A stretch of 64,000 nt of DNA, taken from Escherichia phage EC.P1. The position numbers and the translations under genes were made by a program. The notes beneath the pieces were generated by a model, which ran no database searches, was not told the DNA's origin, and saw only the letters and a list, made by a program, of their open reading frames with translations. The stretch's first letter is position 1, and each line of letters begins with the position of its first letter. The stretch lies in the sequence record PQ657772.1. One strand, written 5' to 3'. Below, piece after piece: positions 29,897-31,569 of this stretch.

Positions 29897-30205
29897 CTAT
29901 AGCAAGTCGTTTTCCATATCGTCAAGAACAGAATCGACGATGTTCGCTGCTATCTTCTTAGGCATCTTGAACCACTCGGTGTTAGGTTGCCTTACTGCGT
30001 TCATTTGTTTTAGTCTTTTGTGAATTTCTTTCTCTGCTAAACGTGCATCTTCAAAGTGTACTTCATGGTATACCACAAAATCTCTAAAAGGTGTAGCAGT
30101 TTGATATGTCCTTAAACGTTCTGTCATTTCAGATTTACTGGTAAATCCTATCTTAACATAATCAGGCCACGCATCATTTACTATAACATAACATATCTGT
30201 GACAT
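29897..30205 (-). CDS. T5orf172 / GIY-YIG-like domain protein
   Basis: YVIVNDAWPDYVKIGFTSK...RLRTYQ pattern; GGAGAT RBS before ATG 30205. Confidence 0.45.
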   Translation of the reverse strand: MSQICYVIVNDAWPDYVKIGFTSKSEMTERLRTYQTATPFRDFVVYHEVHFEDARLAEKEIHKRLKQMNAVRQPNTEWFKMPKKIAANIVDSVLDDMENDLL

Positions 30206-30244
30206 AGAAAATATCTCCATCAGTAATATGAAGATATTTATTAA

Positions 30245-30604
30245 TCAAGTAATTCGGAAATTTACCCCAGCATCAATTAGGCGTTGGAATGGGTTTTGTG
30301 GCTCGAATTCAGAAGGAGTTTTTGAAATGTTCAGTACTGGAGCATCAGCATGTAACTTTGACATACGTTCTTTGTACTTATCTAAGTATTCTTCATATAA
30401 CATATCTTCAGTGTTACTATCAAGTATGTCTTCAATAAATGAATCAATACTATAGTCCAGTCTATCATCATTATAATACAAAGTTTCACTAGCTTCATCA
30501 TAACCAACTAAAGTCCCGTATGGAACGTTAATCTCAATTTTTGAGTACTGACTCTTTAAGTACTCTTCTTTCTTAAAAATGTATACAGTTAACATCCGTG
30601 TCAA
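30245..30604 (-). CDS. hypothetical protein (119 aa)
   Basis: ORF between two T5orf172-like genes. Confidence 0.4.
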   Translation of the reverse strand: MTRMLTVYIFKKEEYLKSQYSKIEINVPYGTLVGYDEASETLYYNDDRLDYSIDSFIEDILDSNTEDMLYEEYLDKYKERMSKLHADAPVLNISKTPSEFEPQNPFQRLIDAGVNFRIT

Positions 30605-30618
30605 CTCCTTATGGTTGT

Positions 30619-31521
30619 TTACTTAAAAGTATTTACGATTTCCAAAACACTTTCAAGATACTTAGCATCAAAAGTTTCAGTAAATCCTGATGGTAACTCT
30701 TCAGTACTTACTACACCACTATCAATGTATTGTTTCAAAAACTTTTCCAGTACTAATGGTTTATGCCCATCTTCAAAGAAACGCTGAACTAGTACAGTGT
30801 GTTCAAAATCAGAATCACGACTTTGTTCATGAATTCGCCTCTTCATATCACCAGTAATTCCGTACTTGTAAACTGTTTTCTTTTTATTTGTCAATTTTTG
30901 AATGTAAAAATATCCAGGTTTTGATGGCTGGTATCCATATTCTCCACAAGATGGACACCCACGACCGTTGACATGTGCCTTTGGAATTTGAGTAAATTTA
31001 CCATGTTCTGGACAAACGATAATAATCTTTGTATCACTATTTTTATATTCAACTAAGTCATAGCAATATTTGTCACCATGTACTGCTATAGCTTTTTTAA
31101 TAAACAATTCAGTGGTTATACCAAAACGATTAGCACATACACCACAATCACAATTTTTATTCAACAATGTTGCTGGGTTAACTTCGATATAATCTTGATG
31201 TTCATTACAGAAAAGAATCACTTTAGTTTTTTGATTTACATAAACGGTTTTTTCATAAGAATATTTGTTACCATATTTTTCTTGACATTTTTTAATAAAT
31301 TCGTCAGTTTGATGTGGGACGTTTTTATGACATATATTACAACCTTTAGCAGTTTTTCTAACAATTTGCATAGGGGTAATTAAAAAATATTGATTACAAT
31401 CAGTACAATAAAGTTCGACTTGCTTATGGGCGTTAACATATACCATCTTTTCAAATGTATATTTCCCCATTCCATATTTTTCGTTAACATCGTTTATAAA
31501 TTTTTGTTCATGCTTGTTCAT
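30619..31521 (-). CDS. homing-endonuclease-like protein: three Cys-rich repeats plus C-terminal T5orf172/GIY-YIG-like domain
   Basis: Triplicated ~45-aa repeat with CxxC/CxC pairs; C-terminal GYFYIQKL...KYGITGDMKRRIHE; start uncertain (31521 or 31548). Confidence 0.5.
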   Translation of the reverse strand: MNKHEQKFINDVNEKYGMGKYTFEKMVYVNAHKQVELYCTDCNQYFLITPMQIVRKTAKGCNICHKNVPHQTDEFIKKCQEKYGNKYSYEKTVYVNQKTKVILFCNEHQDYIEVNPATLLNKNCDCGVCANRFGITTELFIKKAIAVHGDKYCYDLVEYKNSDTKIIIVCPEHGKFTQIPKAHVNGRGCPSCGEYGYQPSKPGYFYIQKLTNKKKTVYKYGITGDMKRRIHEQSRDSDFEHTVLVQRFFEDGHKPLVLEKFLKQYIDSGVVSTEELPSGFTETFDAKYLESVLEIVNTFK

Positions 31522-31569
31522 AATCCTACCTTGTGGGTTAATTTTCATTGTAGATAATATTATACCACA

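Follow-up and report, generated by a model that had tools for sequence, protein, structure and literature searches.

We analyzed a 64,000-nucleotide stretch of Escherichia phage EC.P1 (PQ657772.1; hereafter the window), whose source belongs to the Asteriusvirus-like jumbo phages of E. coli (121Q/PBECO4 group), at a locus where three open reading frames (ORFs) are flanked by a tail fibre gene (28227-29855, phrog_13229, E 3.6e-247) and a gp23-like capsid gene (31630-32805). ORF-A (29897-30220), ORF-B (30245-30595) and ORF-C (30619-31521), like all genes of the locus and all features given below, are on the minus strand. Judging from sequence comparisons, ORF-C is probably a homing endonuclease gene, free-standing and mobile now or recently, whose product falls in the T5orf172 branch of the GIY-YIG superfamily; we assign this reading a probability of about three in four. 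Of the three genes, ORF-C alone behaves as an insert. An earlier note, made from the letters of the window only, had rightly placed the block between tail fibre and capsid genes but proposed that all of it is a mobile island. The larger gene, ORF-C, bears this out, being present or absent among near-identical relatives and found as the same cassette in two diverged backbones, whereas ORF-A and ORF-B are fixed and conserved across genera. ORF-B, the third gene between the two that were flagged, was missing from that note.

ORF-C lies in a variable slot that extends from the terminator of the capsid gene to the start of ORF-B. A terminator scan located this intrinsic hairpin (AGGGACTCTTCGGAGTCCCT followed by a T-run) at 31588-31607, and it is kept in all genomes aligned. 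Over the region 27600-33000, the window was matched by Ecwhy_1 (95%), BF17 (97%) and fEgEco12 (98.9% over 81% of the query). Three relatives, fEgEco12, PBECO4 and CMSTMSU, have nothing in the slot, and PHA46 has no endonuclease gene beside its capsid gene. The empty site of fEgEco12 and CMSTMSU reads capsid stop, spacer, terminator hairpin, T-run, 39 bp and ORF-B start, and that of PBECO4 is laid out likewise, its upstream stretch being a little longer. All cassettes share an identical insertion point, directly after the T-run. In CMSTMSU (L009, MH494197, UNVERIFIED_ORG), the capsid, tail-fibre and neighbouring genes are split into short ORFs and the terminator hairpin carries single-base deletions; these breaks are probably sequencing errors, making this genome a poor reference.

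Where the slot is filled, its occupants differ. A three-repeat T5orf172 gene of 305 aa (type E3) is found in Ecwhy_1, WPEC5 and others, a four-repeat gene of 365-368 aa (type Q4) in 121Q, vB_Ec-M-J, Turkey3, BF17 and others, and a different T5orf172 gene of 332-337 aa (type T) in TH47, SHEFM2K and others. UE-S1 harbors an unrelated 552-aa gene (L012:2560-4218) with DUF7487 and a weak match to the PD-(D/E)XK-type REase_MTES_1575; judged from its match span, ph0011 probably has an occupant of the UE-S1 type. The window carries a 300-aa three-repeat gene (type W3), ORF-C itself, and the nearest W3-like metagenomic proteins occupy the same slot in more distant jumbo phages. Estimated from match spans, the isolates divide roughly into 7 with an empty slot, 9 E3-like, 12 Q4, 3 T and 2 UE-S1-like. 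ORF-C is therefore found as homing genes are, intergenic between conserved genes and sporadically present or absent among close relatives.

The same position is variable beyond Asteriusvirus. In Cronobacter phage GAP32 (gene GAP32_251, L027:2756-2989), the slot holds a 77-aa ORF that resembles a C-terminal T5orf172 remnant (…EDG…LLE…LPDGYTET…), which suggests a decayed endonuclease gene. In Salmonella phage SE_PL (L007:1534-2564), an additional gene of 207 aa separates the ORF-B-like gene from a 373-aa CapR-type endonuclease gene, the slot protein matching CapR with an E of 6.9e-11. As PHA46 lacks the ORF-B-like, the 207-aa and the endonuclease genes, the region is plastic in Salmonella jumbo phages too.

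The history of the ORF-C allele could be followed by comparing the window with fEgEco12 and with L026, a metagenomic contig that carries a 98% allele of ORF-C on a UE-S1-like backbone. Outside 30596-31783, the window equals fEgEco12, with 0 differences over 29290-30595 and 1 over 31784-33500, and all differences in the right flank are clustered at 31609-31783. The cassette 30619-31785, by contrast, is 97-99% identical to L026 (98.3% for ORF-C, 97.2% for the upstream region with the terminator and 98.7% for capsid codons 341-392, against 88.7% in the ORF-B flank and 91.3% in the capsid gene beyond 31786). On the left side, the window and the E3-type WPEC5 are identical up to 30749, and the window's differences from L026 number 22 up to 30650 and are sparse afterwards. 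The spacer that separates the stop of ORF-C from the start of ORF-B (30596-30618), which contains an AAGGAG ribosome-binding site for ORF-B, replaces the native ORF-B upstream region of empty sites and is identical to that of WPEC5 and Ecwhy_1, unlike that of L026.

These breakpoints delimit an imported tract of ~1.0-1.2 kb, approximately 30700-31800, with its left crossover inside the 3' end of ORF-C (30651-30749) and its right crossover inside the capsid gene (31784-31830). Since the left end follows WPEC5 and the remainder follows L026, ORF-C of the window is a chimera: its last ~30-130 nt derive from an E3-type allele that was resident on a WPEC5/fEgEco12-like backbone, and an L026-like donor supplied the remainder along with the terminator region and the final ~50 codons of the capsid gene. 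A crossover inside the 3' end of ORF-C means that an endonuclease allele already resident there was replaced, with co-conversion of the capsid 3' end. Horizontal transfer with co-conversion of the flank, the same cassette standing in two diverged backbones, is again a property of homing genes, and the tract is the footprint expected of a double-strand break in the capsid 3' region of a recipient repaired from a carrier genome.

The C-terminal domain of ORF-C (residues 199-300, 30622-30927) is predicted to be the nuclease. The gene as a whole matches phrog_681 ('endonuclease', E 1e-69), and GenBank labels its homologues 'endonuclease', 'homing endonuclease' or 'GIY-YIG nuclease family protein'. 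The protein's own matches to T5orf172 (14.9 bits, E 0.039, cut-off 20) and MUG113 (14.8 bits, cut-off 22.3) are both sub-threshold, so the domain was assigned from profile and structure evidence. Taken individually, 12-13 of the 19 homologue C-termini match T5orf172 or MUG113 at E < 0.01, and an hhalign comparison of the domain with the ORF-A family, a clear T5orf172 family, gave a probability of 84% (E 7.8e-6). A profile of the C-terminal domain matched the GIY-YIG proteins 1zg2 (E 0.0038) and 1ywl (E 0.011) in the PDB, and the Tyr, KxGxT, Arg-Arg and Glu motifs of ORF-C align with theirs. In an alignment of 32 sequences, Y206, G221, E259 and G279 are invariant and K219-x-G221-I-T is near-invariant; RR229-230 is present. 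The AlphaFold2 (AF2) model of the domain alone (predicted local distance difference test, pLDDT, 94.9) has GIY-YIG topology, and the C-terminus combines the GIY-YIG fold, a three-stranded sheet flanked by helices, with the catalytic Tyr in strand 1, Arg in helix 1 and Glu in helix 2. The claim that two genes of the block have T5orf172/GIY-YIG-like domains is thus upheld, by Pfam for ORF-A and by profile and structure for ORF-C. A Foldseek search of the PDB with the full-length ORF-C model returned only noise, because this multi-domain, beads-on-a-string model has a predicted template modelling (pTM) score of 0.40; the domain-only model fixed the problem. Single-sequence phmmer searches of PDB sequences with ORF-C and ORF-A gave no meaningful match.

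Upstream of the nuclease domain, ORF-C contains three zinc-ribbon repeats, R1 (CTDC...CNIC, 31312-31512), R2 (CNEH...CDCGVC, 31117-31311) and R3 (CPEH...CPSC, 30928-31116). The Cys/His pairs lie at CTDC39-42/CNIC61-64, CNEH105-108/CDCGVC124-129 and CPEH170-173/CPSC189-192 (300-aa numbering), giving two pairs of zinc ligands in each module, and the Cys columns are invariant over 32 homologues. The repeats are genuine, with local-alignment z values against shuffles of 15.8 (R1-R2), 4.3 and 16.2 (R2-R3). The Cys-pair repeats of the earlier note therefore stand, but their length of about 45 aa does not, the period being 63-67 aa. R1 has a weak match to DUF4379 and R3 weak matches to DUF723 and CapR (residues 161-202 of a 309-aa form), all under the curated Pfam cut-offs. 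The full-length AF2 model (pLDDT 87.5, pTM 0.40) shows three helix-plus-beta-hairpin modules on linkers, arranged as beads on a string.

Among 5.8 billion proteins searched, 138 relatives of ORF-C were recovered. A DUF723 match was found in 120 of the 120 listed, many of which additionally match DUF4379, CapR, T5orf172 or MUG113. The top protein match, 98% identical, comes from a 1.8-kb metagenomic contig, and protein identity at this level was found on one metagenomic contig only; among isolated phages, the best match to the ORF-C allele is ~75% at the nucleotide level. NCBIfam gave zero matches for the ORF-A, ORF-B and ORF-C proteins, and in the rest of the 64-kb window, a hidden Markov model search detected no paralogue of either ORF-A or ORF-C.

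The ORF-C product is likely the 300-aa form, because homologues start with MNK or MNP and the ATG at 31521 has a Shine-Dalgarno-like AAGGTAGG in front of it; translation from another ATG, at 31548, would yield 309 aa. A small hairpin at 31525-31537 (CCCACAAGGTAGG, mRNA strand) overlaps the putative ribosome-binding site and is reminiscent of the translational control of T4 endonuclease genes, though its stem has five pairs only. Directly upstream of ORF-C, a TGgTATAAT extended -10-like element (31559-31567) is a putative cassette promoter. It is absent from the output of the consensus promoter scan, which demands a -35 hexamer. The other cassettes aligned at the slot have either a sigma-70-like hexamer pair (TTGACA-N17-TATAAT-like) or an extended -10 upstream of the gene. 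The ratio of nonsynonymous to synonymous substitution rates (dN/dS) of ORF-C is 0.1-0.25, which shows a protein maintained by purifying selection.

Selection of this kind, the promoter-like element of its own and the position beside the capsid gene could also be read as signs that ORF-C has been domesticated, serving the phage as a sequence-specific nuclease against other phages or satellites, as ICP1 Odn does, or as a regulator like CapR, and spreading through the fitness benefit; indeed, in ICP1 and PLE (an element like the phage-inducible chromosomal islands), the same domain set has yielded an anti-satellite nuclease (Odn) and a capsid-operon repressor (CapR). We consider this unlikely. 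Several close relatives do without ORF-C, and the presence of several unrelated nuclease cassettes and one decayed remnant at the slot is the invasion-and-decay pattern of selfish elements. A Pfam scan of ORF-C also revealed no satellite-type DNA-binding domain such as RepA_N, and a service to the phage would in any case be compatible with homing.

If ORF-C is a homing endonuclease, its target might be sought in the capsid gene, where two patches of synonymous recoding were found. We compared 17 distinct Asteriusvirus capsid genes, which encode four protein variants with an invariant C-terminal 60 aa. The mean pairwise nucleotide difference is 0.041 over the whole gene but 0.185 over codons 351-378 (patch 2, 31672-31755), the top value among all 28-codon windows, where the recoding is dense and purely synonymous; it drops to 0.003 over codons 379-392. 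A second synonymous hot spot covers codons ~305-324 (patch 1, 31834-31893), with a value of 0.172 over codons 309-322; here the window has the fEgEco12 version. AGY<->TCN serine switches are among the patch changes. Within a near-clonal backbone group, whose members have 0-4 differences in the first 300 capsid codons (first 900 nt), patch 2 sets the window apart from fEgEco12 at 23 positions, and the two show no other difference of note. Between genera, divergence in both patches is 2-3 times as fast as in the remaining capsid gene while the protein is unchanged.

One version of patch 2 is common to 7/7 Q4 genomes and another to the window and L026; E3, T and empty genomes have a 'reference' type or its variants. 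Patch 1 varies independently of patch 2. As patch versions track the cassette type, the patches are candidate target or immunity sites, and we infer that they may be recognition, cleavage or immunity sites for the slot endonucleases; alternatively, patch 2 is a candidate co-conversion marker. We place the ORF-C cut site tentatively, at somewhat less than even odds, within capsid codons ~300-391, and if so most likely in the recoded codons 351-378.

The homing endonuclease reading of ORF-C would then work as follows. The three tandem zinc-ribbon modules of CapR/DUF723/DUF4379 type, strung like beads, would read an extended DNA site, and the C-terminal GIY-YIG-fold domain, presumably active, would cut nearby. 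During mixed infection, the enzyme would cut the genome of a related phage without the ORF-C allele, recombinational repair would copy the cassette and neighbouring DNA from the carrier genome, and the carrier's private synonymous version would protect it against its own enzyme. Taken further, both patches, which fall in the last ~90 codons of the capsid gene, might be recognition or cleavage sites contested by at least five nuclease cassettes, each with its own cleavage-resistant patch version, a proposal that we regard as rather more doubtful than not. Were it true, the window would preserve a replacement that ran to completion, a window-type allele together with patch 2 having overwritten the 305-aa allele that resided there, and the locus would be a natural, sequence-resolved record of competition between endonucleases over an essential gene.

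Several observations weigh against parts of this account. All of ORF-C's own Pfam matches (T5orf172, DUF723, CapR and DUF4379) are below the curated cut-offs, and the observed exchange could be explained by ordinary homologous recombination without a targeted break. The association between patch haplotype and cassette may be plain linkage, which is conceivable because patch 2 is only ~70-150 bp from the insertion point. Genomes with the 305-aa cassette have the same patch-2 version as the empty fEgEco12, and UE-S1 has the window's version beside an unrelated cassette, so there is no single enzyme for each patch version. An alternative target is the ~39-bp ORF-B upstream region, which every insert replaces.

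Some of these observations would also suit a cassette that is a passive passenger (a 'moron') at a recombination-prone intergenic site, its nuclease inactive or irrelevant and the patches being imports from diverged lineages. A passenger could well sit directly behind a terminator with its own promoter-like element; both crossovers fall in conserved coding sequence, as with ordinary recombination, patch versions like that of the window are found in other genera, and patch version and cassette are not strictly one-to-one. On the other hand, every occupant of the slot is a nuclease-type gene, and the catalytic residues of ORF-C, as well as the whole protein, are under purifying selection. Neutral import alone also does not predict patches that diverge 2-3 times faster than the remaining capsid gene between genera over an invariant protein. 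We therefore find a passive passenger improbable, slightly more so than a domesticated nuclease or repressor, and prefer a homing endonuclease gene.

Neither of the other two genes shares the behavior of ORF-C. ORF-A encodes a stand-alone T5orf172 (GIY-YIG superfamily) protein of 107 aa, annotated in relatives from an inner ATG at 30205 (102 aa), that scores above the Pfam cut-offs for T5orf172 (50.6 bits, E 3e-13, cut-off 20) and MUG113 (48.8 bits, E 1.1e-12) and belongs to phrog_15085. Six homologues from three genera all keep its residues Y6, K18-I-G20, R30, E58 and E77-W78, its amino acid identity is 66-100% over the relatives examined and 66-77% across genera, and its dN/dS is 0.05 versus 121Q. 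ORF-B, a 116-aa acidic protein (phrog_15724) whose ATG at 30595 forms the left border of the slot, has homologues 30-34% identical in SE_PL, GAP32, Erwinia and Xanthomonas phages; it diverges faster than ORF-A, though a dN/dS of 0.11 points to purifying selection here as well. No Pfam or NCBIfam match was found for ORF-B, and an IMG/VR scan with it returned phage 121Q itself as the sole hit. A profile of ORF-A homologues found nothing among PDB sequences.

In every Asteriusvirus examined, both genes are found between those for the capsid and the tail fibre, and they hold the same position in SE_PL, GAP32 (Mimasvirus), Erwinia phage pEa_SNUABM_47 (Eneladusvirus) and Xanthomonas phage XbC2; PHA46 keeps ORF-A and has two small ORFs only at the place of ORF-B. 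Because this position is conserved across three genera, ORF-A and ORF-B are not mobile and stand outside the mobile unit, with ORF-A as a fixed, selectively maintained nuclease-like protein. ORF-A lacks the sporadic distribution and the DNA-recognition module of homing endonucleases, no DNA-binding or recognition module being found in its single 102-aa domain. The earlier note had held that conservation in all relatives, together with no endonuclease domain in a profile search, would speak against its proposal; for ORF-A, the conservation was found, but so was a T5orf172 domain.

That ORF-A, ORF-B and ORF-C could form one mobile homing-endonuclease island was suggested by the two T5orf172 domains within 1.6 kb and agrees with a guanine-cytosine content that goes down to 0.27-0.35 over 30000-31600. 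We regard such an island as very improbable, given that ORF-A and ORF-B keep the same order at the same junction in Asteriusvirus, Mimasvirus and Eneladusvirus, that 29290-30595 is 100% identical to the endonuclease-free fEgEco12, and that ORF-A combines its low dN/dS with the lack of a DNA-binding domain.

One further interpretation of these small genes was rejected. ORF-B followed by ORF-A has the order of a binding domain and a nuclease, as in a split and decayed endonuclease, but ORF-B has no Cys/His ligands and is unlike the ORF-C repeats, and both genes are conserved under purifying selection. As to a defence system, PADLOC matched ORF-A only to the candidate systems PDC-S57 and PD-Lambda-1, through the shared domain, and returned nothing for ORF-B or ORF-C.

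On the right-hand side of the locus, the conserved neighbour is the gp23-like major capsid protein gene (Pfam Gp23, E 9.5e-90; phrog_138), followed by a scaffold protein gene (32896-34011). On the other side, beyond the tail fibre gene, lie a tail fibre assembly gene (27707-28225), a small ORF of 101 aa (27301-27606) and a DNA polymerase gene (24213-27218). The stretch 27684-28442, comprising the tail fibre C-terminus and the assembly gene, is swapped in Turkey3, WPEC5 and several metagenomic genomes for a 569-570-aa fibre with a Gp53-like_C domain and without a separate assembly gene. This replacement is a receptor-binding module swap on the same backbone. ORF-A was considered as an edge of the module swap in Turkey3 and WPEC5, and this was rejected, as the homology break at 27684-28442 is far from ORF-A.

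The locus adds a clean comparative record, in which near-clonal jumbo coliphage backbones have one slot that is empty or filled with one of at least five nuclease cassettes, along with mapped crossovers and two synonymous hot spots in an essential gene that is invariant elsewhere. Two matters thereby become testable: the specificity of modular zinc-finger T5orf172 endonucleases for their targets, and whether localized recoding and mosaicism in capsid genes are driven by such enzymes. Given the turnover of the slot and the exchange of capsid 3' ends, these ends and the slot junction are unreliable typing markers for these therapeutic-candidate phages.

ORF-C adds a new allele to a class of mobile element that was known before. 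Barth, Dunham & Seed (2023; PMC10448857) described T5orf172 endonuclease genes from ICP1, T5-like and other phages, 87% of which have CapR, DUF723 or DUF4379 zinc fingers, often repeated; they lie near capsid genes in 31% of neighbourhoods and show intragenic repeat recombination, domain swapping and exchange boundaries. ORF-C resembles this class in its N-terminal tandem zinc-finger modules, its C-terminal T5orf172 domain and its free-standing position beside the capsid gene, as well as in the repeat number that varies among alleles (three versus four), intragenic recombination, domain swapping and an exchange boundary. It differs in its host lineage, the Asteriusvirus-like jumbo coliphages, of which text searches of PMC10448857 found no mention, and in its own sub-threshold Pfam matches. 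Our literature search found no description of slot polymorphism in Asteriusvirus-like or Rak2-like phages.

The free-standing endonucleases of T4 cut away from their own genes and co-convert the flanks, and one of their genes, segD, is located between genes 23 and 24 (Edgell et al. 2010, PMC2988022). Like T4 SegA-G, ORF-C is intergenic between conserved genes, sporadic and associated with co-conversion of flanking markers, and segD is likewise just downstream of the gp23 gene. The architectures differ, however. T4 Seg proteins have a canonical GIY-YIG domain at the N-terminus and DNA-binding domains at the C-terminus; in ORF-C, the nuclease is C-terminal and of the T5orf172 branch, with KxGxT in place of YIG, and a zinc-ribbon array would bind DNA.

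The only biochemical proof of DNA cutting by a T5orf172 domain comes from ICP1 Odn, a proven nuclease whose activity is abolished by E180A (PMC8263062). The origin-directed Odn (Gp88) and ORF-C both have the T5orf172 catalytic domain with the conserved Arg and Glu; ORF-C differs in its zinc-ribbon repeats and in the population pattern of a homing element. According to PMC8096241, as cited in PMC10448857, PLE CapR (PF21817) represses capsid genes and derives from an endonuclease that was domesticated. R3 of ORF-C appears to be the same type of zinc-finger module, its CapR match being weak, but while PLE CapR is a repressor, ORF-C retains a nuclease domain that is predicted to be intact.

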